Source: an uncultured bacterium
Lineage (GTDB): Bacteria; Patescibacteriota; Minisyncoccia; Phycocordibacterales; GWA1-40-21
Length of the DNA stretch: 50,340 bases
Direction: 5' to 3'
Assembly: GCA_963840885.1 (NCBI GenBank)
Contig: CAWJAN010000003.1
Location: forward strand, 1-50,340
Both the position numbers and the translations under genes were made by a program. This document shows positions 16,523 to 48,783 of this stretch, in pieces (the first letter of the stretch is position 1; each line of letters opens with the position of its first letter). The notes beneath the pieces are model-generated. The model was not told the origin of the DNA. It made no database searches and saw nothing but the letters and a program-made list of their open reading frames with translations.

Positions 16523-16547
16523 GTATTAAGTATATAGTATTTAGTAT
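16522..16547 (+). repeat. AGTATWW heptamer array (26-mer AGTATTAAGTATATAGTATTTAGTAT)
   Basis: AGTAT recurs at a 7-nt period. The 26-mer is identical at 19801-19826 and near-identical at 17504-17536. The array starts on the last base of the stop codon. Confidence 0.9.
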
Positions 16548-16561
16548 AACAACTCTCTAGG

Positions 16562-16711
16562 TTTGTCATCCTGGCGCAGTCCAGGATCTCGGGGAACAGC
16601 AATGGACATTTTTAACCCTAAGGCTTGCAAGTCAAATGTACTTTAGGACTATCTGGTTAAAATAAAATACTGTTTGATTGACGAGATTCCGGACTTCGCC
16701 GGAATGACAAA
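16562..16711. mobile_element. 150-bp MITE-like element with 29-bp hairpin-bearing terminal inverted repeats (GTCAT...AATCTC family)
   Basis: Left end TTTGTCATCCTGGCGCAGTCCAGGATCTC. The reverse complement of the right end is TTTGTCATTCCGGCGAAGTCCGGAATCTC (24/29 identical). The mismatches at stem positions are compensatory. There is no ORF inside. Confidence 0.75.
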
Positions 16712-16722
16712 TAGCAACTAAC

Positions 16723-16935
16723 ATGAAAATTCAAGATATATTATTTTTCGCCATACTTTTATTCCTTCTTTTTAAACGAAAGAGTCAGTGGTTTGTTATT
16801 GGGGGGTTGGTTTGCCTGGCTGCATCAATTCCTCTCTTTGCTTTGAGGGTCTTCTTTACTGCTCAGCATTTGGTTTGGTATGCTGCCGGTTTCTTATTGG
16901 TTGCAATTGTTCTAAAATATAGAGAACTAGCATGA
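16723..16935 (+). CDS. small two-TM membrane protein
   Basis: 70-aa ORF, two hydrophobic helices, stop overlaps the next start (ATGA). Confidence 0.5.
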   Translation: MKIQDILFFAILLFLLFKRKSQWFVIGGLVCLAASIPLFALRVFFTAQHLVWYAAGFLLVAIVLKYRELA

Positions 16936-17501
16936 AAATCGGCATTGATATTTCCCAGATCGCTTATGAAGGAACCGGGGTAGGGAACCTTACCAGAAAA
17001 CTAGTTGAGAACTTAATTCTATTGGATACGGATAACGAATATATTCTCTTTTATTCATCTCTGAGGCGGAATTTCAATTTTCAAATTTCAAATTTCCAAT
17101 TAACACCAAACGCAAAAGTTAAAGAATTCAAGTTTCCACCAATATTCCTCGATTTTCTTTGGAATAAACTACATATTTTTCCTATTGAGTGGTTGATTGG
17201 GAAAGTTGACGTATTCCTCTCATCGGATTGGACTCAGCCCCCTACAAAGGCGAAAAAGGCTACAATTCTCTATGACCTCATTGTATATAAATATCCGAAG
17301 GAAACTCACGACCAGTTTAAGTTTGACTTTAAACGGCTTCGTATTATCCCAAATATCGTCGCTTCTCAAAAGAGACGATTGCATTGGGTGAAAAAAGAAT
17401 GTGATACTATTATCTGTATATCAGAAGCAACGAAAAAGGACGCGATGGAGGTTTTAGGAATATCGGAGAATAAGTTGAAGGTGGTTTATCCGGGATTTTA
17501 A
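16932..17501 (+). CDS. glycosyltransferase family 1, N-terminal domain only (truncated or split)
   Basis: MKIGIDISQIAYEGTGVGN ... ISEATKKDAMEVLGISENKLKVVYPGF then stop. The paralogue at 17947 continues past its equivalent VTYPGI into the EX7E domain. That half is missing here, and the heptamer array begins 3 nt after the stop. Confidence 0.75.
   Translation: MKIGIDISQIAYEGTGVGNLTRKLVENLILLDTDNEYILFYSSLRRNFNFQISNFQLTPNAKVKEFKFPPIFLDFLWNKLHIFPIEWLIGKVDVFLSSDWTQPPTKAKKATILYDLIVYKYPKETHDQFKFDFKRLRIIPNIVASQKRRLHWVKKECDTIICISEATKKDAMEVLGISENKLKVVYPGF
17070..17104 (+). repeat. AATTTCA heptamer tract (5 units) inside a CDS
   Basis: aatttca attttca aatttca aatttcc aattaac, translated NFNFQISNFQL. 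Confidence 0.9.
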
Positions 17502-17503
17502 AT

Positions 17504-17536
17504 AGTATTAAGTATATAGTATCTAGTATTTAGTAT
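17504..17536 (+). repeat. AGTATWW heptamer array, left arm of the cassette around the four-helix-bundle gene
   Basis: agtatta agtatat agtatct agtattt agtat, directly abutting ATG 17537. Confidence 0.9.
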
Positions 17537-17908
17537 ATGCAGAGAAGAATTAGCTCATTTACTGATTTAGTGTGTTGGCAGGAGGGACATAAACTAGTCT
17601 TGGATGTCTACAAAATAACCACAAATTTTCCTAAAACAGAAATTTATTGCTTAATTGACCAGATGAGGAGATGTGTGATTTCTATAACAAGTAACATAGC
17701 GGAGGGGTTCTCCAGGAGAAGTAAAAAGGAGAAAGACCAATTTTACTATATGGCATTGGGGTCATTAACTGAATTGCAAAATCAATTACTTGTTGCTAGA
17801 GATTTGAAGTATCTAACACCACAAGAGTTCTCTCGAATAGCAAGCCACACCGTACTCGTATCAAAACTCATTAGGGGGCTTTTAAAAAGTTCTGCTAATC
17901 ATTCTTGA
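17537..17908 (+). CDS. four-helix-bundle protein (23S rRNA intervening-sequence protein / Avd family, PF05635/TIGR02436-like)
   Basis: FTDLVCWQEGHKLVLDVYKITTNFPKTEIYCLIDQMRRCVISITSNIAEGFSRRSKKEKDQFYYMALGSLTELQNQL matches the family signature (W-Q, FP..E, Q.RR...SI..NIAEG, GS..EL). Confidence 0.9.
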   Translation: MQRRISSFTDLVCWQEGHKLVLDVYKITTNFPKTEIYCLIDQMRRCVISITSNIAEGFSRRSKKEKDQFYYMALGSLTELQNQLLVARDLKYLTPQEFSRIASHTVLVSKLIRGLLKSSANHS

Positions 17909-17942
17909 TACTAAATACTAAATACTAAATACTTTATACTAT
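17908..17942 (-). repeat. ATACTAA heptamer array, right arm (inverted with respect to 17504-17536)
   Basis: atactaa x3, atacttt, atactat. The reverse complement is AGTATWW units. The array begins on the last base of the TGA stop and ends 4 nt before ATG 17947. Confidence 0.9.
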
Positions 17943-17946
17943 TGTT

Positions 17947-19101: not shown

Positions 19102-19186
19102 ATTGTTACATTGCTTCATTGTTTCATTGCTATAAAGAGCCATCTAATTGCATTAACAATGGAACAATCGAACAATGAAGCAATCG
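19102..19186. repeat. CATTG/CAATG octamer-periodic palindromic element, copy 1
   Basis: Left arm attgttac attgcttc attgtttc attgctat. Right arm aacaatgg aacaatcg aacaatga agcaatcg. It ends 8 nt before ATG 19194. Confidence 0.9.
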
Positions 19187-19193
19187 TTTATAT

Positions 19194-19787
19194 ATGAAAG
19201 ATAAAACAGGTAAAGTGTTAACTCCTCAGGAAACTGCTCGCAAGATACTCAATAGGATATCTAATATTCTTCTTGAACTCGATATATTCCTGCTTTTTAT
19301 CATCGGATGGGTTCCGATTCATCATGTCCGGCGGTTTTTCTATAGAGTTGCAGGAGTGAAAATTGGTCAGGGCTCGACCATCCATATGGGCACGGTATTT
19401 TATGATCCCAAGAATATTGAAGTTGGAAAGGATACTATCATTGGAGAAAGAGCCGTCTTGGATGGCCGGGCCATGCTTACTATCGGCGATCATGTGGATA
19501 TCGCTTCGGAAGTCATGATCTATAATTCCCAGCATGATGTGAACAGCGAGCATTTTACTGCGATCACAAAACCTGTTATCATTCAAGACTACGTCTTTAT
19601 CGGTCCGAGAGCAATTATTTTACCGGGAGTAACAATAGGGAAAGGCGCGGTAGTCGGTGCGGGAGCTGTTGTAACGAAAGATGTTGCTGATTTTTCAATT
19701 GTAGGTGGAGTGCCGGCGCAAGTCATTGGGGAAAGGAAGAATAAAGAATTGCATTATCGGTTAGGAAGAGCGAGATGGTTCAGGTAG
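19194..19787 (+). CDS. hexapeptide-repeat (LbH) O-acetyltransferase, WbbJ/Maa-like, with N-terminal TM segment
   Basis: IGERAVLDGRAMLTIGDHVDIASEV...IGPRAIILPGVTIGKGAVVGAGAVVTKDV...VGGVPAQVIG. Confidence 0.85.
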   Translation: MKDKTGKVLTPQETARKILNRISNILLELDIFLLFIIGWVPIHHVRRFFYRVAGVKIGQGSTIHMGTVFYDPKNIEVGKDTIIGERAVLDGRAMLTIGDHVDIASEVMIYNSQHDVNSEHFTAITKPVIIQDYVFIGPRAIILPGVTIGKGAVVGAGAVVTKDVADFSIVGGVPAQVIGERKNKELHYRLGRARWFR

Positions 19788-24307: not shown

Positions 24308-24384
24308 ATTGTTCCATTGTTCGATTGCTCCATTGCTGAAGTAACAATTGAACAATGAGCGTAGCGATAGCAATGAAACAATGG
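24308..24384. repeat. CATTG/CAATG octamer-periodic palindromic element, copy 2
   Basis: attgttcc attgttcg attgctcc attgctga, loop, aacaattg aacaatga [gcgtagcgat] agcaatga aacaatgg. The last unit contains ATG 24381. Confidence 0.9.
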
Positions 24385-25973
24385 TGATGAATAACATTAA
24401 GCTTAAACAAAAGCTAGAAATAACGATTTTAGCTGTCATAATAATCCTGGCATTTACTGTCCGTTTATATCGGTTTAATAATCCGATAGCGGATTGGCAC
24501 GCGTGGAGACAGGGAGATACCTCGGCAGTTTCGCGGAACTTTGTGGCCCATGGGTTTGACCTGCTCCATCCTCAGTACGATGATATCTCCAATGTTCAAA
24601 CCGGCGTGGATAATCCCAAGGGATATCGGTTTTTGGAGTTCCCTCTGTATAACCTTTTCCAAGCTGGAGGATTTGTCATTTTCGGCGTATTTACTCTCGA
24701 AGAATGGGGCCGGCTCGTAACTATTCTGATCTCGATGCTCGCGATTGTCTTCGTATATCTTATCGGGAAACGCTATGCGAACAGTACGGTTGGTTTTATT
24801 TCGGCTGCATTTTTCGCATTTGTCCCGTATAACATTTACTATGATAGGACTATTCTGCCTGATCCTGCGATGACTATGGCAATTCTTGGGGGTATCTATT
24901 TTTTTGGAAAATGGATAGATACAATTTCAAATTTCAAATTTCAAATTTCAAATGAAAAAGGGAAAGGCAACAATGAAAATAAATCTCGTAAAGGTACGAA
25001 TTTTTCCAAAGCGTCCCACCACAACGGCGATAACTTTTCCAAAGTGTCAGAAGTGAGCGTTCAGAGTTTTTCATTCTTACTATTAGCAATTATTTTTACT
25101 GCGTGCGCGTTGCTCTTTAAACCATTCGCGATATTCTTTGTTTTGCCGATGGTGTATCTGGCGTATAAGCGGTTCGGGTGGAAGATGATTCTCAGATGGG
25201 AACTATGGGTATTTACCATACTATCAGTCGCCCCTCTGGCATGGTGGCGGTTGTGGATGCAGCAATATCCAGAAGGAATACCTTCAAATACATGGCTTTT
25301 TAATGGCGGGAATGTGCGGTTTACGAGGTCATATTTCAGATGGGTCTTCGGTTTACGTATTGGAGGCTTAATTTCAGGGTGGTTTGGGTTACTTGTCCTC
25401 GCGATTGGGTTTATCAAACGGCCAAAAACGGACATGCTCTTTTTTTATTCTTTTGCACTCTCGGCATTAGTGTATATATTAGTAATTGCGCGCGGAAACT
25501 TACAGCATGATTATTATCAAATTATCATTATCCCTACCATTGCTTTCTTTTTCGGTCTTGGCGGTGATTATTTGTTGCATGCGAGGTCGAAGCTACTCCC
25601 GAATCTCTCGGTTGGGATAGGAATATTTGCTGCTTGTGTGCTGGTTGGATGGTGGATTGCCTGGTACCAAGTCCGGGACTACTTCAATATCAACAATCCG
25701 TCGCTTATCGTTGCAGGTAAAGCCGTAGACAGGCTTACTCCGAAGAATGCGCTGGTTATTGCTCCGTTAGATGGCGATACGACGTTTCTTTATCAAACGA
25801 AGCGTAAGGGGTGGCCGAGCTTTGAACATTCCCTCCCTGATCTGATACAATTAGGGGCAGATTATCTGGTTTTAGCGAACCCGCAGCCAAAAGATTACGA
25901 TATTGGGAAAACATATAAAATTGTGTCAGCAAATAAAGATTATATCTTGTTTGATTTGCACAAAAAGCCCTGA
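24381..25973 (+). CDS. GT-C glycosyltransferase, ArnT/PMT_2 (GT39/GT83-like), with a low-complexity loop insertion
   Basis: RLYRFNNPIADWHAWRQGDT, then many TM helices. The upstream part of track ORF 24348 is repeat-encoded, so the start is placed at ATG 24381 (alternative 24387). Confidence 0.75.
   Translation: MVMNNIKLKQKLEITILAVIIILAFTVRLYRFNNPIADWHAWRQGDTSAVSRNFVAHGFDLLHPQYDDISNVQTGVDNPKGYRFLEFPLYNLFQAGGFVIFGVFTLEEWGRLVTILISMLAIVFVYLIGKRYANSTVGFISAAFFAFVPYNIYYDRTILPDPAMTMAILGGIYFFGKWIDTISNFKFQISNEKGKGNNENKSRKGTNFSKASHHNGDNFSKVSEVSVQSFSFLLLAIIFTACALLFKPFAIFFVLPMVYLAYKRFGWKMILRWELWVFTILSVAPLAWWRLWMQQYPEGIPSNTWLFNGGNVRFTRSYFRWVFGLRIGGLISGWFGLLVLAIGFIKRPKTDMLFFYSFALSALVYILVIARGNLQHDYYQIIIIPTIAFFFGLGGDYLLHARSKLLPNLSVGIGIFAACVLVGWWIAWYQVRDYFNINNPSLIVAGKAVDRLTPKNALVIAPLDGDTTFLYQTKRKGWPSFEHSLPDLIQLGADYLVLANPQPKDYDIGKTYKIVSANKDYILFDLHKKP
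24923..24950 (+). repeat. AATTTCA heptamer tract (4 exact units) inside a CDS
   Basis: aatttca x4 followed by aatg, translated ISNFKFQISN. It opens a roughly 50-aa low-complexity insert. Confidence 0.9.
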
Positions 25974-26047
25974 ACTGAATGCACGAGGTTTATGGTAAAT
26001 CATTACGTAAAATGATGCTAATTCAAGCTTGGAGAAGATTGTTCCAT

Positions 26048-26152
26048 TGCTAACGCTCACTATTGTTCGCTCATTGCTCCATTGTTGTTTTAACAATTGA
26101 ACAATGAAACGAGTCCGACTCGGTGAAACAATTGAACAATTCTTACATTCCA
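26048..26152. repeat. CATTG/CAATG octamer-periodic palindromic element, copy 3
   Basis: The left arm has attgttcc, attgctaa, attgttcg, attgctcc, attgttgt. The right arm is aacaattg aacaatga aac[gagtccgactcg]gtg aaacaattg aacaattc. Confidence 0.9.
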
Positions 26153-26189
26153 ATCGTGGATACAGTATGTTTCGGCAAATAATCAAATC

Positions 26190-27380
26190 ATGAATATCTT
26201 AATTGTCTCTTCCTATCTTCCGTACCCTCTTATGGATGGGGGGAATGTTCGGTTGTTTAATATCATCAAGGAACTCTCGAAGAAAAATAAAATTACGCTT
26301 GTTTGTGAGATCCGAGCGAAACAGACAGAGACGGATGTAAAGGAAGTAAAAAAGTACTGTGAGGAAATAATTGTCGTTCCTCATAAAAAGCCATGGACTT
26401 TTGAAAATATCGTAAAATCGACTTTTTCTCCGTATCCGCTCCTCCTTGTCATGCATACCTTCCCGGAAATGAAGAAAAAAATTGTGGAGGTACTCAATCG
26501 GAAACGGTTTGATGTTATTCATGTCGAGACCTTTTATGTGTTTCAAAATCTCCCGAAAACGTATTTGCCCACAGTATTAGTAGAGCACAATATCGAATAT
26601 CTCGTCTATTCGCGCTATGCGAAAACTGCCAGGCCATATCTTCGTCCGCTGCTATACGGAGATATTGCGAAAATAAAATACTGGGAACAGAAATTCTGGA
26701 AAAAGGCGACGAAAGTTTGTGCTGTAACAGAAGAAGAAAAACACAAAATGAATAGAAGTGATGTGTGCGTCGTCCCGAATGGAGTTGATACCCGTATCTA
26801 TACATTGGCGCGTGCGAAGGATAGGAAAACGAAAAAAGTTTTGTTTATTGGGAGCTTCAAGTGGATACAAAACAGAGATTCGGTAAAGTGGATAATTAAG
26901 GATATTTGGCCAAAAATTGTCGAGAAGTTGGAATCAAAAAAAGCCACTATTACGCCAATTCTTTGGATTGTCGGGAGAAATATACCTGAAGATATTAAAG
27001 CGCTAAAAACAGATTCCATCGCATTCGAGGAGCACGCTGATGATACTGTAAAAGTTTACCAACAGAGCGATATTCTTCTCGCCCCGATAAAAGTCGGCGG
27101 CGGCAGCAGTTATAAAGTCATCGAGGCCATGGCCAGCGGTGTGCCGGTCGTTACGACGAATCTAGCTGCGGATGCATTAGGCGCCAAAAATGGGACGCAG
27201 ATTATTACCGGCGAAACTGACGAAGAACTGGCTGATGCGACAGTCAATCTTTTGCAAAACGCTTCTTACTATGAAATAATCAGAAAGAATGCCAGAGGCC
27301 TGATAGAGCAGAAATATAACTGGGAGAGCATTACTAAGGCTCTAGAGAAGGTGTATTCCGACGTTTCACAGGAAGCTTGA
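26190..27380 (+). CDS. glycosyltransferase family 1 (GT4)
   Basis: Intact 396 aa. MNILIVSSYLPYPLMDGGNVR and GGGSSYKVIEAMASGVPVVTT. Confidence 0.9.
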   Translation: MNILIVSSYLPYPLMDGGNVRLFNIIKELSKKNKITLVCEIRAKQTETDVKEVKKYCEEIIVVPHKKPWTFENIVKSTFSPYPLLLVMHTFPEMKKKIVEVLNRKRFDVIHVETFYVFQNLPKTYLPTVLVEHNIEYLVYSRYAKTARPYLRPLLYGDIAKIKYWEQKFWKKATKVCAVTEEEKHKMNRSDVCVVPNGVDTRIYTLARAKDRKTKKVLFIGSFKWIQNRDSVKWIIKDIWPKIVEKLESKKATITPILWIVGRNIPEDIKALKTDSIAFEEHADDTVKVYQQSDILLAPIKVGGGSSYKVIEAMASGVPVVTTNLAADALGAKNGTQIITGETDEELADATVNLLQNASYYEIIRKNARGLIEQKYNWESITKALEKVYSDVSQEA

Positions 27381-27414: not shown

Positions 27415-27500
27415 ATTGTTCCATTGTTCGATTGTTTCATTGTTAAAGCGAAGCATAAAAAATCGCCTAGCAATTGAGCAATGAAGCAATGTAGCAATTG
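27415..27500. repeat. CATTG/CAATG octamer-periodic palindromic element, copy 4 (cleanest)
   Basis: attgttcc attgttcg attgtttc attgttaa, 22-nt spacer, agcaattg agcaatga agcaatgt agcaattg. Confidence 0.9.
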
Positions 27501-28523: not shown

Positions 28524-28630
28524 GTCATTGCGAATCAGTCCGCAGACTGGTGCGGCAATCTTATTAGGTTACATTTAATCTGGTTTTCACGAGATTGCCG
28601 CGTCGCTCGGATGCCGCTCCTCGCAATGAC
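28524..28630. mobile_element. 107-bp MITE-like element of the GTCATT...AATCT hairpin-TIR family
   Basis: GTCATTGCGA-N18-GCGGCAATCT at 28524-28561. Its inverted copy AGATTGCCGC-N19-TCGCAATGAC ends at 28630. No ORF is needed to explain it. Confidence 0.7.
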
Positions 28631-28654
28631 GAAAATTACGCTATAATAATAACC

Positions 28655-29787
28655 ATGAGAGTAGGAATTGATGCGAGGTTGTGGGATGAGACGGGGATTG
28701 GGAGATATATTCGGAATTTAGTAAAGTATCTTCAGGAAGTTGATCAAGCGAATGAGTATGTTTTGTTCGTATTAGGTAAAGATTATGGGAATGTCAAAGC
28801 ACTAATTTCTAATAAAAAATGGAAAGTAGTGATAGCTGATGTTCGGTGGCATAGTTTTGCAGAACAGATCAAGCTTTCAGGCATTTTATATAAGGAGAAG
28901 CTTGATCTGATGCACTTTCCCTATTATTCTTACCCCATTTTATATAGCGGAAAGTTTGTTGCCACTATTCATGACCTCATCCTTCTCCATTTTCCCACAG
29001 GAAAAGCGTCGAATTTGCCCCATGTTTTTTATAAAGCAAAACTATTCGCGTATAAATTGCTTACGAGGAACGCGGTGTTGCATGCTCAGCAAATTATTGC
29101 TGTATCAAATGCCACGAAACAGGAAATTGTAGATCACTACCATATTCCTAAAGATAAAATTACCGTAACATACGAAGGGGTAGATGAGCGCATGGATGGA
29201 CAACAGAATAAGCTTGTTGATACTAGATACAAAATACTACATACTAAATACTTTCTTTACGTCGGGAACGCCTATCCTCACAAAAATCTTGAAAGACTTA
29301 TCCAAGCGTTTGGGATATTTAAAAAAGATAATGGTTCAGATGTAAAGCTTATCTTAGTTGGTAAGAATAACTATTTTTATAAGCGGTTGGAGAAAACAAT
29401 TGACGCGTATAGTCTGCGCTCTGATATATTGGTTTTCCACGACGTTAACGATGAAGCGCTTGGGTACTTATATAAAAATGCGATTGCAACGGTTATCCCA
29501 TCGCTGATGGAGGGGTTCGGTCTTCCGGCTCTTGAGGCTATGAGTCAGAAATGCCTGGTAGTCGCGTCTGATATTCCATCAATCCGTGAAATTTGCGGAA
29601 TAACGCGTTATACTTTGACCTAAAAGTGATAAAGGATATTGCCGGCACGCTTTCTATGGTATATAAGAAGAGGAATGATTTTTCGGCACAAAAAACAGAT
29701 GGGGTGAAAAAAACATCTCAATTTTCCTGGAAGAAAATGGCTGCAGAAACAAAACAAGTTTATGAAAGTAGCGTTCGTATACGATAG
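28655..29787 (+). CDS. glycosyltransferase family 1 (GT4); one frameshift near 29600
   Basis: MRVGIDARLWDETGIGRYIRN, FLYVGNAYPHKN, PSLMEGFGLPALEAM. The C-terminus continues as NNALYFDL...SWKKMAAETKQVY (ORF 29593..29787). The first 20 codons of track ORF 28595 are repeat-encoded. Confidence 0.85.
29221..29255 (-). repeat. TACTNNN heptamer tract (5 units, AGTAT family in reverse orientation) inside a CDS
   Basis: tactaga tacaaaa tactaca tactaaa tactttc, translated DTRYKILHTKYF. Confidence 0.85.
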
Positions 29788-36292: not shown

Positions 36293-37606
36293 ATGGATAA
36301 TTTGATGGAGAAAATTACAGCATTAGCGAAGCGGAGGGGATTTATTTATCCCGGCTCCGAGATTTATGGCGGACTGGCCGGAACATGGGATTATGGTCCA
36401 TTGGGCACTGAACTCAAGCGCAACATCAAAAATATCTGGTGGAAGAACGTGGTTCTTGAACGCGATGACATGGTTGGAATCGATGCCGCAATCATGATGA
36501 ATCCCCGCGCCTGGGAAGCATCAGGTCATGTCGAGGCATTCACAGATCCTCTTGTCGAATGTAAAATTTGTCATTTGCGGTTTCGATCGGATAAACCTGA
36601 CGAAATAAAGCAGCATGTTCAGACCCATAAAGGACAGGTTGTCGAATGGACAGAGCCTCAGCAATTCAACCTTTTAGTTAAGGCCTACTTAGGTGTTCTA
36701 GAGGGGAAACAAGCAGAGTTATATTTGCGTGGCGAAATTACAAATGGTGTCCACGTCAATTTTAAAAACGTGGTAAGTTCTTCCAGAGTCAAGATTCCCT
36801 TTGGTATTGCTCAAATCGGAAAAGCATTCAGGAACGAGATTACTCCGGGGAACTTTGTTTTCAGATCCAGAGAATTTGAGCAAATGGAAACTCAGTTTTA
36901 TGTTAAACCGGTAGACATAGAAGGTAAAAAGTGGTTTGAGTATTGGAAGCAAAACCGACTTGAATGGTTCCTCTCTCTCGGCATCCGAAAAGAAAATATC
37001 CGTTTTAGAGATCATGCAGATGACGAACGGGCGCATTATGCGCGAGCAGCAACAGATTTGGAGTACAACGCTCCATGGGGTTGGCAAGAATTTATGGGAA
37101 TTCATCACAGGGGTGATTGGGATTTAACCAGGCACCAAAAGTATAGCGGAAAGCCTATGACATATAATGATCCGGAATCTGGAGAAGAATATATACCGTG
37201 GGATATTGAGACATCTGCCGGGGTTGATAGATCATTATTATTCTTTTTGGTGGATGCATATAATGAAGAGGGAAAGCGTATCGTTTTAAAACTCCATCCA
37301 AAACTGGCACCGGTTAAGGCGGCGGTATTTCCCTTGTTAGCCAACAAACCGGAATTAACGAAAGTCGCGGAAAAAGTATATCGGGATTTGAAAAAGAATA
37401 TCGATGGTGTGGTAGCCTGGGATGACCGGGGAAATATCGGAAAGCGATATTTATCGCAGGATGAGATAGGAACGCCATATTGTATTACCATTGATTTCCA
37501 GACACTGGAAGATCAAACTGTCACACTGAGAGACCGGGATACTACCAAGCAGGAACGGGTAAAAATTGAAGACCTTCTTACTCTACTTCAGAAGAAACTA
37601 CAGTAA
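36293..37606 (+). CDS. glyQS: glycine--tRNA ligase (dimeric class II GlyRS)
   Basis: MEKITALAKRRGFIYPGSEIYGGLAGTWDYGPLG, FRNEITPGNFVFRSREFEQME, YIPWDIETSAGVDR. Start is at ATG 36293, because track TTG 36278 lies inside the terminator U tract. Confidence 0.9.
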   Translation: MDNLMEKITALAKRRGFIYPGSEIYGGLAGTWDYGPLGTELKRNIKNIWWKNVVLERDDMVGIDAAIMMNPRAWEASGHVEAFTDPLVECKICHLRFRSDKPDEIKQHVQTHKGQVVEWTEPQQFNLLVKAYLGVLEGKQAELYLRGEITNGVHVNFKNVVSSSRVKIPFGIAQIGKAFRNEITPGNFVFRSREFEQMETQFYVKPVDIEGKKWFEYWKQNRLEWFLSLGIRKENIRFRDHADDERAHYARAATDLEYNAPWGWQEFMGIHHRGDWDLTRHQKYSGKPMTYNDPESGEEYIPWDIETSAGVDRSLLFFLVDAYNEEGKRIVLKLHPKLAPVKAAVFPLLANKPELTKVAEKVYRDLKKNIDGVVAWDDRGNIGKRYLSQDEIGTPYCITIDFQTLEDQTVTLRDRDTTKQERVKIEDLLTLLQKKLQ

Positions 37607-37618
37607 GGCCCTTCTACA

Positions 37619-37784
37619 GGCCGGAAAGGATTTGCAATCCTTTCTGTATGTTTTGTAAATCGCACAAATGTCATTTCAGTAAACTTTGTGCCACGTTCAC
37701 TGACAATACTAAACTCGTGTAATGCATTCATATTTGGTGGATATTACAAAACGTTTCGGAATGGTTTACAAAACCATTCCGGCT
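37619..37784 (+). repeat. double-hairpin intergenic element (family B), long copy
   Basis: Hairpin 1 is gaaaggat-ttgca-atcctttc (37624-37644). A conserved gtaaatcgcacaa..tcatttcag core follows. Then AACGTTTCGG and hairpin 2, cggaatggttt-aca-aaaccattccg (37757-37781). Confidence 0.85.
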
Positions 37785-37839
37785 ACTGGACAGCTAAGAA
37801 GGGAAGTTTACTAACTCCTGTTTATGCTATACTCCGATC

Positions 37840-38608: not shown

Positions 38609-38644
38609 TGTTGATATGCTAATCTAAGATAGGCTATTCCCCGG

Positions 38645-38774
38645 GCCGGAAAGGATTTGTAATCCTTTCTGTATAGTTAGTAAATCGCATAACATATCAT
38701 TTCAGCAAAGTTTCGGAATGGTTTGCACCACAAGGGCACTAACTTCGCGGAAGTGTCGCAAAACCATTCCGGCT
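38645..38774 (+). repeat. double-hairpin intergenic element (family B), second copy, same orientation
   Basis: gccggaaaggatttgtaatcctttctgtat..gtaaatcgcataa..tcatttcag ... gtttcggaatggttt[46-nt expanded loop]aaaccattccggct. Confidence 0.85.
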
Positions 38775-38827
38775 TCAGAATCCTTTGGCTCTTCTGGTAC
38801 ATTTGGTACCTTCGGCTCGTACTATAT

Positions 38828-41151: not shown

Positions 41152-41290
41152 AGCGTTAAGGGTAAAGGGAAAAGTGAAATGTTTAAGGTCTAATTTCTAA
41201 TGCCTAAAGAAAACTACAGTGGCAAAGTTTATTAGATTTTAAAGCATTTGACATTTTATTAGAAATTAGGAATTAGACATTTGGCATTAC
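41145..41290. repeat. intergenic spacer built from 7-nt periodic degenerate repeats in inverted arrangement
   Basis: agggtaa agcgtta agggtaa agggaaa agtgaaa tgtttaa ggtctaa tttctaa tgcctaa (41145-41207), then ttagaaa ttaggaa ttagaca tttggca (41259-41286). Confidence 0.85.
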
Positions 41291-41608: not shown

Positions 41609-43293
41609 CATGGCGTTACCACCTTATTCTGCTTTTCTTCGGTCTGGCATTCATGGCTATCACAGCAAAGCTCTTCTGGTGGCAGGTCGTAAAAGCTGAA
41701 GAGCTTTCAGATCTAGGTCAGGCACAGTACTCAAAAAATCTCCAAATAGAACCCATTCGGGGTGACATAAAAGCATCAGACGATTTTCCTCTCGCGACAA
41801 ATAAGCTATCATATCTTGTTTTCGCGAATCCGAAAGAAATTGGCGATAAAGAAGATACTGCAAATAAATTGGCACCCATTCTGGGCATGGACAGCGCGAC
41901 TATAAGCGGGAAGTTGACTCAAGATAAATTTTGGGTTCCGATAAAACCGAGTATCGATGAAGATACCAGAAAGACAATTGATGCGCTCCGTATACCTGGT
42001 GTTGGTTTTCAGGAGGAATATGGCAGGCTTTATACTGAAGCGTCAACAGCTGCACAACTTCTTGGATTTGTTGGTAAGGATACATTCGGAAATGATAAAG
42101 GGTATTTTGGCTTAGAAGGGTATTACGATAGGCAATTACGTGGCAGAGCAGGACAGGCAGTTATCATTAACGATGCATTTGGGCGTCCTGTTTTATCGAA
42201 ATTTGATGGTAGTTCCGGAGAGTTAGACGGCCGGTCATTTCTGACGCTCCATATTGATCGTGCTATCCAGTTCCTCGTTGAATCGAAATTAAAGGCAGGA
42301 ATTAATAAATACGGTGCTGAAAGCGGTATGGCTGCGGTCATGGACCCGGCAACCGGGGGTATACTGGCTATGTCGGCATTTCCATCATTTGATCCGAGAA
42401 GCTATGGAAATTACGATGTTTCACTGTATAAAAATCCCTTTATCACGGATACGTACGAACCAGGATCTACGTTTAAGCCTCTTGTTATGGCGGCAGGAAT
42501 GGAGTCTCATCTCATTACACCTACTTCGACCTGTCCTGTTTGCGGGGGTCCGGTTTCAAGTCGGAGGATACGATATCCATACTTGGAATGATCAGTATTT
42601 TGCTAACACCGATATGACGCACATCATGATTGACTCCAGACAATACCGGTATGGTGTATATTGCCCAAAGATTAGGCCTGGATCGTATGTTGTCGTATCT
42701 GGGTAAATATGGGATAGGAGATTCGACGGGGATAGATTTAGAAGGTGAGTTGGCACCGGGATTAAAACGCAACCGGATTGGTATCCGATTGATCTGGCGA
42801 CCGCGGGATTCGGGTCAGGGAATTTCTGTCACCCCCATAGAGCTTCTGGACGCATTTGCTACTATCGCGAATAAGGGTCAGCGTATGGAACCTCATGTCG
42901 TGTCGGAGATTACCACTCCTGATGGTCAGCAGATAACTATCCCGCCGAAAGTACTGGACCAGCCAATTGCTGAAGGAACTGCGAAAGTCATGACTGAAAT
43001 CTTAGTTCACGCAGTCGATGAGGGAGAGGCGAAGTTTGCCAGACTGGCAAAGGATATCGAATAGCCGGAAAGACCGGTACAGCGTCAATTCCACTGAACG
43101 GACATTATGATCCACGAAAACGATTGCTTCATTTATCGGATTCGCTCCAGCCGATAATCCAAAGTTTATTATGTTGGTTATCTTAAACAAGCCCACTGCT
43201 TCAATTTATGGCGCCGAAACCGCTGCGCCCATATTCTTCGACATCGCGAAAAACTTGCTGGTCTATTATGGAATTCCACCGAGTGGAGATTAA
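41605..43293 (+). CDS. ftsI: class B penicillin-binding protein (FtsI/PBP2-type transpeptidase); at least five frameshifts
   Basis: N-terminal TM helix and dimerisation domain, then STFKP (SxxK). SDN is readable after a shift near 42640, GFGQGISVTP after a compensated pair at about 42770/42815, and AGKTGTA after a shift near 43055. The C-terminus YYGIPPSGD ends at 43291-43293. Confidence 0.85.
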
Positions 43294-43297
43294 TGTC

Positions 43298-43702
43298 TGT
43301 CATTCCGGCTTGTCCGGAATCTCATCGACTTACACGAGGATTGATGGATTGAGTTGGTGGTAAAGATCCTTGAAGGTTGGATTCATCAGTTGATATGAGT
43401 TCTAACTTTATCTTTTCGTGACATATTTTTGATTTGTTTCTCTCTGATGATTGCTTGTGATGATCCTTCTATTGCCTCGTAATATATTAAGTTGTGTAGG
43501 TTATATTTCTGAGTAAATCCCTTTATAATCTCCAAGCTTGTGTTCTTGGAGTTCTTCGAAGTAGCATTATTCGTGACACCAGTGTATAAACGGGGTTGTT
43601 GCTCTTGTTACCCATAATGTAGACAAACATGTACTTGCTAGTCATACCGATTCAATTTACAGTCTACCAGATTGAAGAGATTCCGGACAAGCCGGAATGA
43701 CA
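43298..43702. mobile_element. 405-bp element with perfect 26-bp terminal inverted repeats enclosing a degenerate GIY-YIG nuclease gene
   Basis: TGTCATTCCGGCTTGTCCGGAATCTC at 43298-43323 is the exact reverse complement of 43677-43702. Each arm is itself a hairpin. Confidence 0.8.
43387..43645 (-). pseudogene. GIY-YIG (COG2827/URI-type) nuclease gene, spread over three frames
   Basis: The minus strand reads MTSKYMFVYIMGNKSNN, then YTGVTNN, LLRRT, EHK, and KGFTQKYNLHNLIYYEAIEGSSQAIIREKQIKNMSRKDK in different frames. Confidence 0.7.
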
Positions 43703-43707
43703 TATCA

Positions 43708-44037
43708 TCAACGTATATTCGTTCCTGGGGGAGTTTTTTTAAGAGGTTTAAGCGGCAGTGGTACTTTTCCGTCTGCGGCGAGGATCATGCCTTCGGAGAA
43801 TTCGCCCATCATCTTTCTGGGTTCTAAGTTGATTATGAAGACAAATGTTTTTCCTATAAGTTGCTCGGGGGTATAAAATTGTGAGATTCCGGAGAGGATG
43901 TTTCGCTGTCCTTCCGGACCGAAGTCGACTGTCAGACGAAGTAATTTGTTCGAACCCTCTTTGTGTTCACAGTTAAGAATTGTACCTACCCTGAGATCAA
44001 GTTTATCAAAATCTTCAAATGTAATAAGTGGTTTCAT
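43708..44037 (-). CDS. csaA: tRNA-binding domain protein (CsaA/Trbp111/EMAP-like)
   Basis: FDKLDLRVGTILNCE, LLRLTVDFG, ILSGISQFYTPEQLIGKTFVFIINLEPRKMMGEFSEGMILAA. Confidence 0.85.
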   Translation of the reverse strand: MKPLITFEDFDKLDLRVGTILNCEHKEGSNKLLRLTVDFGPEGQRNILSGISQFYTPEQLIGKTFVFIINLEPRKMMGEFSEGMILAADGKVPLPLKPLKKTPPGTNIR

Positions 44038-44040
44038 ATG

Positions 44041-44320
44041 CTATTGCGGCAGCTCTTCTAAATATTTATCCAATCTCTTCTCGAGTTCTTTTATTTGTTG
44101 ATTGTGGAGCTTTAGGAGTAACATGACGTCTAATATATCTTCACGAAGATCTTTTGTATTTTTATTCATATCCTTGAGATCCTTTCCATATATTCGGATA
44201 TCTTTCCCGACAGATTTAATATCCTGCTTGGTTGCCAGCTTTCGAAGATCGAGAAGTAATGGCTGAAGCGCATGCTTAAAAATTTTTCGTATCGCGCCTC
44301 AAATCTTTCGTCGTCAACAT
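44041..44320 (-). CDS. small coiled-coil protein, hypothetical; one frameshift at the A5T5 run near 44280
   Basis: MLTTKDLRRDTKNF, then in the adjacent frame KHALQPLLLDLRKLATKQDIKSVGKDIRIYGKDLKDMNKNTKDLREDIL...ELEKRLDKYLEELPQ. Its stop is 3 nt from the csaA start. Confidence 0.4.
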
Positions 44321-44464
44321 AGTAGCATCATAAATGTTTTTCTCACTCGGCGCAATCGGCAAACTGGACAAAGTCCGAATCTTATAGTACAATACTTTCG
44401 TGCTCGTGTCTTGTGATTGTTTGCAGACGCGAGCATATTTTGGTTTACGTTTCACTGTCTGTAG

Positions 44465-44526
44465 CCGGAGCACATTTGCAATGTGCTACGAAACGTTTCG
44501 GACCAGGTTGCAAACCTGCTCCGGCC
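44465..44526 (+). repeat. double-hairpin intergenic element (family B), minimal copy
   Basis: ccgg agcacat-ttgca-atgtgct acgAAACGTTTCGG accaggtt-gca-aacctgct CCGGcc. It has the same loops and linker as 37619-37784, with different stem sequences. Confidence 0.8.
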
Positions 44527-44548
44527 TCGATCGTGATATAATAATTTT

Positions 44549-47174: not shown

Positions 47175-47233
47175 AACAATTGAACAATGAAGCAATGGAG
47201 CCACGTAGAACGTGGCAAGCAATGAAACAATTC
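47175..47233 (+). repeat. CAATG octamer module (right-arm type only) with central mini-hairpin, copy 5
   Basis: aacaattg aacaatga agcaatgg a[gccacgtagaacgtggc]a agcaatga aacaattc, 56 nt upstream of murC. Confidence 0.9.
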
Positions 47234-48704: not shown

Positions 48705-48783
48705 AGGGTAAAGGGGGAAGCGTAAAGTGCAAGCTGCGGCTTTATTCTTAACGCTATACCCTTAACGCTAAACGCTTATTTTT
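48704..48783. repeat. intergenic spacer of 7-nt periodic repeats (AAGGGTA family) in inverted arrangement
   Basis: aagggta aaggggg aagcgta aagtgca, then taacgct ataccct taacgct aaacgct. It shares the 13-mer AGCGTTAAGGGTA (reverse orientation, 48757-48769) with 41152-41164. Confidence 0.85.

Follow-up and report, generated by a model that had tools for sequence, protein, structure and literature searches.

Octamer-periodic hairpins between genes of a Patescibacteria contig as candidate miniature members of an intervening-sequence-like class of cassettes

What is one to make of a short periodic palindrome that recurs between the genes of a single genome fragment? The question is raised by positions 27415 to 27500 of a 50,340-nucleotide stretch of DNA from an uncultured member of the Patescibacteriota (contig CAWJAN010000003.1, GenBank assembly GCA_963840885.1), the whole of which we call the window. 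A sequence-only reading had described this element as one of five octamer-periodic palindromes, each in the 5' region of an envelope gene, and had offered three candidate roles: an operator or attenuator shared across an envelope regulon, an RNA-level hairpin, or a mobile palindromic element with a preference for 5' regions. Of these, the mobile palindromic hairpin is the best supported, and the elements are not a control site specific to envelope genes. The class to which we compare them, elements with inverted arms of 7-8-nt units lying in gaps between co-directional genes, is widespread and found in many bacteria. That the five sites are miniature members, lacking an open reading frame (ORF), of a class of operon-invading hairpin cassettes resembling ribosomal intervening sequences (IVS) is the reading argued here, and one that we hold at about even confidence.

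Read directly, the window carries arrays of ATTGYTNN octamers and of the complementary NNRCAAT at five intergenic sites, numbered here from left to right.

19102-19133, no strand assigned, left arm of copy 1: ATTGTTAC ATTGCTTC ATTGTTTC ATTGCTAT
19155-19186, no strand assigned, right arm of copy 1: AACAATGG AACAATCG AACAATGA AGCAATCG, ending 7 nt short of the acetyltransferase ATG (19194)
24308-24384, no strand assigned, copy 2: four ATTG units, an 8-nt loop, two CAAT units, the insert GCGTAGCGAT and two more CAAT units
26038-26144, no strand assigned, copy 3: an ATTG arm broken by inserts, and a CAAT arm broken by the small hairpin GAGTCCGACTC
27415-27500, no strand assigned, copy 4: four ATTG units, a 24-nt loop and four CAAT units, between a GT4 and a GT2 glycosyltransferase (GT) gene
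47175-47233, + strand, copy 5: a solo arm of three plus two CAAT-type units around the GC hairpin GCCACGTAGAACGTGGC

Copies 1-4 are palindromic as had been described, with an ATTG arm followed by a CAAT arm; copy 5 departs from the description in having CAAT-type units only. Copy 3 begins at 26038 rather than at 26048, where it had been placed, and short inserts break its arms. The gene labels agree with Pfam (hexapeptide acetyltransferase, PMT_2 GT-C, GT4, GT2, and MurC): copy 2 abuts the GT-C (PMT_2) start at 24387, copy 3 lies between the GT-C and GT4 genes, and copy 5 lies between a Cu-oxidase_4 (YfiH-like) gene and murC. All five copies are intergenic and between + strand genes, 12-64 nt from the upstream stop codon and 2-55 nt from the downstream start. 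Since they are as near to the one as to the other, "intercistronic spacer" describes their position equally well as "5' region"; they do all stand upstream of + strand genes, and the preference is for whole intercistronic gaps and not for 5' regions.

The family itself is real, as had been claimed. The degenerate three-unit pattern CAATGNNNCAATNNNNCAAT, with at most one mismatch allowed, has 12 matches in the window, every one inside the five named sites, against 0.20 expected, and none of 100 shuffles reached that number. Period-8 chains of at least three ATTG or CAAT units are likewise confined, within the window, to the five sites. The unit is 8 nt long; its core, ATTGYT or the complementary RCAAT, is fixed while two positions are free, and there are about four units per arm (exactly four in copies 1, 2, and 4). 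From unit to unit, positions 1-4 are invariant (identity 1.0), positions 5-6 agree in 64-91%, and positions 7-8 in ~40% (0.37-0.43 for adjacent units); these are, in other words, tandem units within the 6-9-nt range that combine a conserved core with variable positions.

The order of the non-identical units is shared between sites. The right arms of copies 2, 3, and 5 have the common layout AACAATTG AACAATGA [insert] AxCAATxx AACAATxx, and even the position of the insert recurs among copies at different sites; the left arms of copies 2, 3, and 4 begin ATTGTTCC..ATTGTTCG..ATTGCTCC. A metagenome-assembled genome (MAG) of a member of the Daviesbacteria has the same layout as the window copies, with 97% identity over 32 nt. 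Because this order is shared, the five sites are paralogous copies of a small non-coding repeat rather than products of independent slippage. A 20-mer reported as common to copies 2 and 4 is indeed identical there, whereas copy 1 holds the same two units swapped (CAATGGAACAATCGAACAAT) and not the exact reverse complement that had been described. The inserts within the ATTG arms (GAGCGT...) resemble units of another periodic family, so the arrays are mosaics.

The main lead to the nature of these elements lies 1.2 kb upstream of copy 1, where a gene of the PF05635 family is bracketed by periodic arms of its own. We refer to it as the intervening-sequence protein (IVP) cassette.

17502-17536, + strand, IVP cassette, upstream arm: a run of five AGTATNN heptamers, 35 nt, the entire gap from the preceding stop codon to the ATG
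17537-17908, + strand, PF05635/TIGR02436 gene of 123 aa (E 3e-35): 23S rRNA intervening-sequence protein, four-helix bundle
17909-17946, + strand, IVP cassette, downstream arm: a run of five NNATACT heptamers, inverse to 17502-17536, 38 nt, up to the next ATG (17947)

Proteins of this family, annotated as "four helix bundle protein", are very common and are relatives of Avd, the accessory protein of diversity-generating retroelements. The window protein resembles Avd weakly; among solved structures, that of Xanthomonas XCC0516 comes nearest to it (PDB 2GSC, E 9e-16). The two arms mismatch at the variable position(s) only and bracket the gene exactly, with no other spacer to the neighbors; as in copies 1-4, the complementary termini would make a stem of ~25-35 bp. 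The full form of the class is a promoterless cassette, in which two complementary periodic arms enclose a PF05635/TIGR02436 gene of ~120 aa; it is inserted in the orientation of its neighbors, into the gap that separates one gene's stop codon from the start codon of the gene that follows. The ORF that immediately precedes the IVP cassette (16932-17501, 189 aa) comprises only the N-terminal (Glyco_transf_4) domain of a GT4 enzyme and ends at the conserved ..VVYPG interdomain point; this gene may have been truncated by the insertion.

The association of PF05635 genes with such arms was assessed in a sample drawn without regard to repeats. We picked 80 metagenomic loci by protein similarity alone, the query being a 4-sequence PF05635 alignment that covers only the subfamily of the window protein; 65 of the loci were non-redundant, and 104 genes from the same loci served as controls. 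The two flanks were complementary above the 99th percentile of permuted pairs for 33/65 PF05635 genes as opposed to 3/104 controls (p = 9e-14), and when the upstream flank was compared without gaps with the reverse-complemented downstream flank, the best match had a median of 14, as opposed to 7 in permuted pairs. A periodic array stood upstream of 39/65 PF05635 genes and 9/104 controls (p = 1e-12), and downstream of 31/65 and 16/104, respectively (p = 8e-6). The arrays in PF05635 flanks had a period of 7 in 47 cases and of 8 in 8 cases, with a median of 4.4-4.6 units, or ~30 nt, per arm. PF05635 genes were co-directional with both neighbors in 39/47 cases, and the median gaps of 54 and 50 nt correspond to about one arm each. 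From locus to locus the arms have entirely different cores, and this is so even where the PF05635 proteins are related; related proteins tend to have related arms (Mantel 0 of 2000, r = 0.19). In the subfamily of the window protein the upstream arm has more G than C in 22/22 cassettes. A general polarity rule of this kind was rejected, being broken by the relative L121 (see below) and by two ORF-less families in the window.

How might such an insertion be tolerated? In the operon transcript, the arms would pair into a long interrupted stem of ~30 bp, which would draw the upstream stop codon and the downstream start codon together, so that the insertion could be tolerated even where the genes of relatives overlap. 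By analogy with rRNA intervening sequences, the stem is a probable substrate of RNase III. The predicted folds of copies 1-4 are hairpins in which 7-bp helices are parted by 1-2-nt mismatches, with energies of -22.7 to -31.9 kcal/mol and z scores of -2.1 to -4.8; copy 4 is the best of them (-30.1 kcal/mol, z = -4.75). Variable positions pair between the arms of one element at a rate of 0.53, against 0.38-0.40 for arms taken from other loci and 0.37-0.43 for adjacent units; the stems are maintained yet regularly interrupted. The RNA-level hairpin of the sequence-only reading can be graded plausible: stable interrupted stems are predicted, without a sense-strand G.U signature. The antisense strand folds better for copies 1 and 3 and for the second octamer family of the window, and the sense strand for copy 4 and one heptamer family; because this polarity is inconsistent, we make no claim as to the RNA strand.

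Promoter and terminator scans (16-30 kb of the window) gave counts equal to those of shuffles and called no element; none scored as resembling an intrinsic terminator, with its GC-rich stem and U tract. Nothing in the window matched Rfam at gathering thresholds, ARAGORN found no tRNA or tmRNA in it, and it holds no rRNA. No Shine-Dalgarno motif is visible at the five downstream genes. One should also record that mini-ORFs opening in the right-arm CAATG unit of copies 1-3 (19159-19197, 24355-24387, and 26104-26193) overlap the downstream start as ATGA or TGATG; the overlap is missing at copies 4 and 5, and it may be due to chance (p ~0.05 on a rough estimate) or may serve for reinitiation.

Among relatives the elements are sporadically distributed. 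To judge by MurC homologues, the window belongs to Patescibacteria, close to Microgenomates (Roizman-, Levy-, and Daviesbacteria). In relative L123 (60% MurC identity), the Cu-oxidase_4 (yfiH) gene and murC overlap by 4 nt, and both spacer and element are absent; it follows that the lineage of the window gained the 124-nt spacer in which copy 5 lies. The murC-murA junction exists in three states, namely a 3-nt gap in L122, a 79-nt ORF-less palindrome in the window, and a PF05635 gene in L121 (1491-1969; 121 aa, flanked by TNTCTAA x3 and TTAGNNN x4, that is, TCTAA/TTAGA arms). Relatives L121, L122, and L123 have no ATTG/CAAT arrays, and the metagenome contigs gave no close relatives of the GT-C gene for the junctions of copies 1-4.

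We then have to ask whether the ATTGYT pattern occurs elsewhere, and beside which genes. One genome per species was scanned for three and a half ATTGYTNN units, which returned at least 120 loci in Bacteroidota (Saprospiraceae, Chitinophagaceae, Pedobacter, and Bacteroidales), many Patescibacteria, and others. Among the loci listed, to which the following counts apply, the arrays are ~90% intergenic, and the 71 genes that start beside them fall into 129 Pfam families (SecY, ribosomal protein S2, RuvB, ATP synthase, PFL, and CorA included), with glycosyltransferases accounting for 2/71. The order ATTG-then-CAAT outnumbers the reverse by 32 to 3 (p = 4e-7) and is commonest in loci of the candidate phyla radiation (CPR; 12/30 clusters). 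Since this order reads identically on both strands, it characterizes the hairpin itself rather than the direction in which it is transcribed.

Many matches in genomes and viruses are plain single-arm tandem arrays with near-identical units. In IMG/VR viral contigs, giant-virus MAGs included, there were 121 arrays, all single-arm and tandem, 0 palindromic, and none with a PF05635 gene nearby; because the viral arrays are never palindromic, simple tandem arrays showing this pattern are probably something else. Phages were considered as a vector, for which these arrays gave no evident support.

The loci selected by their arrays also yielded six more PF05635 genes, five of them with inverted periodic arms whose cores are locus-specific. 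One belongs to the isolate Hanstruepera ponticola (L030, Flavobacteriaceae), with CAATGAA-type octamers upstream and CATT-type octamers downstream. No PF05635 ORF is present in the five copies, and one is carried by the neighboring element of the window and by the CAATG-type arms of H. ponticola; the five copies would thus be linked to the cassettes by analogy, through the shared architecture and this one case in another phylum. Elsewhere, in a Patescibacteria MAG (L014, 4969-5764), two PF05635 genes from different subfamilies stand in tandem with a single, shared heptamer array separating them, and an ATTG/CAAT palindrome lies 700 nt away.

The window also holds at least four other 7-8-nt periodic families, found with the program TRF and by reading all intergenic gaps, some of them next to recO, mraW/ftsL, and murC/murA.

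16523-16549, + strand, solo array of AGTATNN heptamers that immediately follows a GT2 stop codon
19795-19830, + strand, solo AGTATNN heptamer array 8 nt past the acetyltransferase stop codon
35066-35189, no strand assigned, octamer palindrome whose core, TAYYCAAA / TTTGRRTA, is not that of the five copies; it fills the gap that precedes recO
41175-41290, no strand assigned, heptamer palindrome NTCTAAT / ATTAGNN between mraW and a DivIC/FtsL-like gene
48705-48783, no strand assigned, heptamer palindrome made of GSGTWWA units and complementary units; it takes up the gap from murC to murA (79 nt)

An NNATACT array of ~4.7 units, with the core of the downstream arm of the IVP cassette, lies in frame within a GT4 gene (29220-29252 in 28595-29623); it falls in the interdomain linker and encodes ..DTRYKILHTKY..

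With this material the competing explanations can be weighed. The operator or attenuator of an envelope regulon drew its appeal from the fact that five of five copies precede envelope-related genes. The window, however, consists mostly of glycosyltransferase and dcw/mur clusters, a very high envelope background, so any intergenic element in it would adjoin an envelope gene. The 71 genes beside arrays elsewhere show no functional bias, the orthologous murC junction of L123 is empty, promoter and terminator signals do not rise above shuffles, and other periodic families occupy non-envelope junctions. The family thus has neither the orthologous conservation nor the single functional class that one looks for in a transcription factor operator, and we consider this explanation scarcely credible. 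The GT cluster might instead contain recombination sites that shuffle cassettes of a polysaccharide locus in the manner of integron attC sites. Within 13 kb of that cluster there are indeed nine periodic elements, and the remaining 37 kb contain four; a CAAT arm 5' and an ATTG arm 3' enclose the GT-C gene and likewise the GT4 gene, the ORF with only the N-terminal domain of a GT4 stops precisely at the border of the IVP cassette, and the interdomain linker of another GT contains the in-frame ATACT array. Against this stand the same elements at recO, mraW, and murC/murA and, elsewhere, next to every kind of gene, as well as a window in which gene annotation by Pfam found no transposase, integrase, or recombinase. 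We regard shuffling of this kind as very doubtful.

Two further explanations dispense with mobility or place the function in the transcript. The arrays could be simple sequence repeats (SSRs) grown in place by replication slippage, in the style of long SSRs or of the short tandemly repeated repetitive (STRR) sequences of cyanobacteria, and made palindromic by local inverted duplication, with neither mobility nor function. Heptamer and octamer SSRs are in excess in the intergenic DNA of several phyla, many hits of the genome and viral scans are plain single-arm tandem arrays, and neither a target-site duplication nor a transposase was found in the window. Slippage alone would not lead one to expect a core that stays invariant while two fixed positions vary (1.0 at positions 1-4, 0.37-0.43 at 7-8), an order of distinct units and an insert position common to copies at different sites, a 32-to-3 chirality, or an association with one protein family; we think it unlikely. 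Alternatively, the arms could be arrays of binding sites for a protein acting on the transcript (S1-, Csp-, or CsrA-like, or a PF05635 pentamer), the CAATG arm on the start side tuning translation or coupling it to the upstream gene. At many loci the sense strand has CAAT near start codons and ATTG near stop codons, mini-ORFs overlap the downstream start at copies 1-3, the five genes are without a visible Shine-Dalgarno motif, arms have 4-5 units while the homologue in PDB 2GSC holds five chains, and a similar proposal exists for TAACTGA repeats (PMC4679880). The start distances, however, come from maximal ORFs and are biased small, as the arrays contain stops and starts in all frames; three overlaps in five reach only p ~0.05 on a rough estimate; and cores that are locus-specific even among related PF05635 proteins argue against sequence-specific recognition. 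This explanation strikes us as quite improbable.

The mobile hairpin cassette accounts for the shared unit order, the sporadic presence among relatives, and an architecture like that of PF05635 genes; what it does not retain from the sequence-only reading is the 5'-region preference. Several observations weigh against it. No PF05635 gene in the window bears ATTG-type arms, the five copies carry no ORF, and the H. ponticola case comes from a different phylum and has the arm order CAAT..gene..CATT. The correlation between protein and arm is weak (the r of 0.19 given above) and confounded by host relatedness, and only about half of the variable positions pair between arms. The sense-strand G.U advantage is not consistent, so that selection at the RNA level is not demonstrated. 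By eye, there is no target-site duplication at the borders of copies 1-5. The junction comparison depends on distant relatives, the closest MurC, that of L121, being only 72% identical. Finally, we know of no nuclease, recombinase, or transposase activity in PF05635.

If miniature cassettes are nevertheless what these sites are, a wider and more tentative picture can be drawn, which as a whole we hold to be rather doubtful. The rRNA intervening sequences may be one face of a pan-bacterial group of promoterless PF05635 cassettes that invade the stop/start junctions of operons and leave miniature ORF-less hairpins behind; their footprints would be the puzzling arrays of 7- and 8-nt units in Xanthomonas, cyanobacteria, Bacteroidota, and CPR bacteria, and a pentameric protein may recognize 4-5 units.

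Three things have gone without explanation for decades, namely intergenic arrays (STRR, GGGAATC, and TAACTGA), the origin of rRNA intervening sequences, and the function of PF05635/TIGR02436, and the present data tie the arrays, the intervening sequences, and the protein family together statistically. The predictions are that RNase III cuts in the stems, that the protein binds the arms, and that the presence of whole elements varies between strains. Such elements account for many odd intercistronic spacers in CPR and Bacteroidota genomes, and we advise against annotating them as regulatory motifs that belong to the neighboring genes.

Three repetitive or unusual regions of the window lie outside this argument and are recorded for completeness. 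A multi-hairpin repeat of ~170 nt (GGCCGGAAAGGATTTGCAATCCTTTCTG ... CGGAATGGTTTACAAAACCATTCCGGC) has two full copies 1 kb apart (37606-37790 and 38631-38775) and a partial one (44464-44525), and neither Rfam nor ARAGORN returned anything for it. GC-rich hairpins reminiscent of repetitive extragenic palindromes (REPs), GAGATTCCGGAC..GCCGGAATGAC, recur in long non-coding gaps at 16560-16590, 16680-16710, 43300-43330, and 43680-43710. The region 43065-44548 spans 1.5 kb without a convincing + strand gene, though the genes of the window are nearly all on that strand; it begins with the apparent 3' end of a frame resembling penicillin-binding proteins and contains a - strand ORF of 109 aa (43708-44037).

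Where, then, do the elements stand among known systems? With miniature inverted-repeat transposable elements they share terminal inverted repeats and multiple dispersed copies, whereas neither a target-site duplication nor a parent insertion sequence or transposase with the same terminal repeats was found for the window family. REPs and bacterial interspersed mosaic elements (BIMEs) are likewise small, non-coding, hairpin-forming, multi-copy, and intergenic, and BIMEs are mosaics of short modules; these are GC-rich palindromes of 20-40 nt with a GTAG/CGTC head and an associated RAYT transposase, whereas the window elements are AT-rich, periodic, and without such a head or a RAYT. Internal periodicity of the arms is a feature of neither miniature transposable elements nor REPs. 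The perfect identical units of phase-variation SSRs are not seen either, as adjacent units differ at positions 7-8 in ~60% of cases.

Short-period arrays of this kind are already on record; what is new here is the 8-nt unit and the CPR host. In Xanthomonas, Rehm et al. 2015 (PMC4692102) described GGGANTN heptamer arrays with a conserved core and variable positions, mostly of four units, 89-93% intergenic and near the upstream ORF, with 70-75 convergent (inverted) pairs per genome; they also reported GGGGAYT arrays in Nostoc and discussed heptamer arrays as G-quadruplex motifs. The likeness to the window family lies in short tandem units with core and variable positions, ~4 units, an intergenic location, and inverted pairs. 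GGGANTN is, however, 7 nt long and G-rich, whereas ATTGYTNN is 8 nt long, AT-rich, incapable of forming a G-quadruplex, and hosted here by a CPR bacterium; the family has no heptamer unit of its own, and heptamer families co-occur with it in the window. Row 15 of a supplementary table in the same paper lists a GGGAATC array at the start of XCC0516, which is the PF05635/TIGR02436 homologue of solved structure, a link on which that paper is silent. MacGregor 2015 (PMC4679880) described TAACTGA heptamers in front of start codons in Beggiatoaceae, cyanobacteria, and Bacteroidetes, and an excess of SSRs with 7- and 8-nt units between genes is on record for several phyla (PMC4679880, PMC4692102). 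Together with the cyanobacterial STRR sequences and the long SSRs of Mrazek 2007, these resemble the window arrays in being intergenic short tandem repeats, patchy across phyla and often directly before starts; STRR and TAACTGA repeats are mostly direct and made of identical units, whereas the window arms are inverted, with units heterogeneous at fixed positions and a period of 8 nt. In the literature searched, whose coverage was incomplete, we found no description of the ATTGYTNN family or of periodic arms around PF05635 genes, and as far as we found the statistical link between PF05635 and periodic arrays has apparently not been described before.

The closest comparison is with the intervening sequences of 23S rRNA, as in Coxiella and Leptospira. 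These sporadic stem-loops are regarded as selfish and horizontally acquired, and some of them carry an S23p/PF05635 ORF (PMC4990558, PMC11270868); that of Coxiella has a 28-bp terminal stem that is cut by RNase III (PMC4990558), and the PF05635 protein, termed functionally uncharacterized, occurs also in rRNA insertions of CPR bacteria (PMC11270868). They sit in helices 9, 25, or 45 of the 23S rRNA, whereas the window copies lie between protein-coding genes; the arms in the window are periodic in steps of 7-8 nt, unlike intervening sequences as described, and cleavage by RNase III, known for the latter, is here predicted only. What the two have in common is a terminal stem of ~28 bp and sporadic occurrence. 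Intervening sequences enclose either a PF05635 ORF of ~120 aa or no ORF, and the cassette at 17502-17946, with its ORF, has this same layout.

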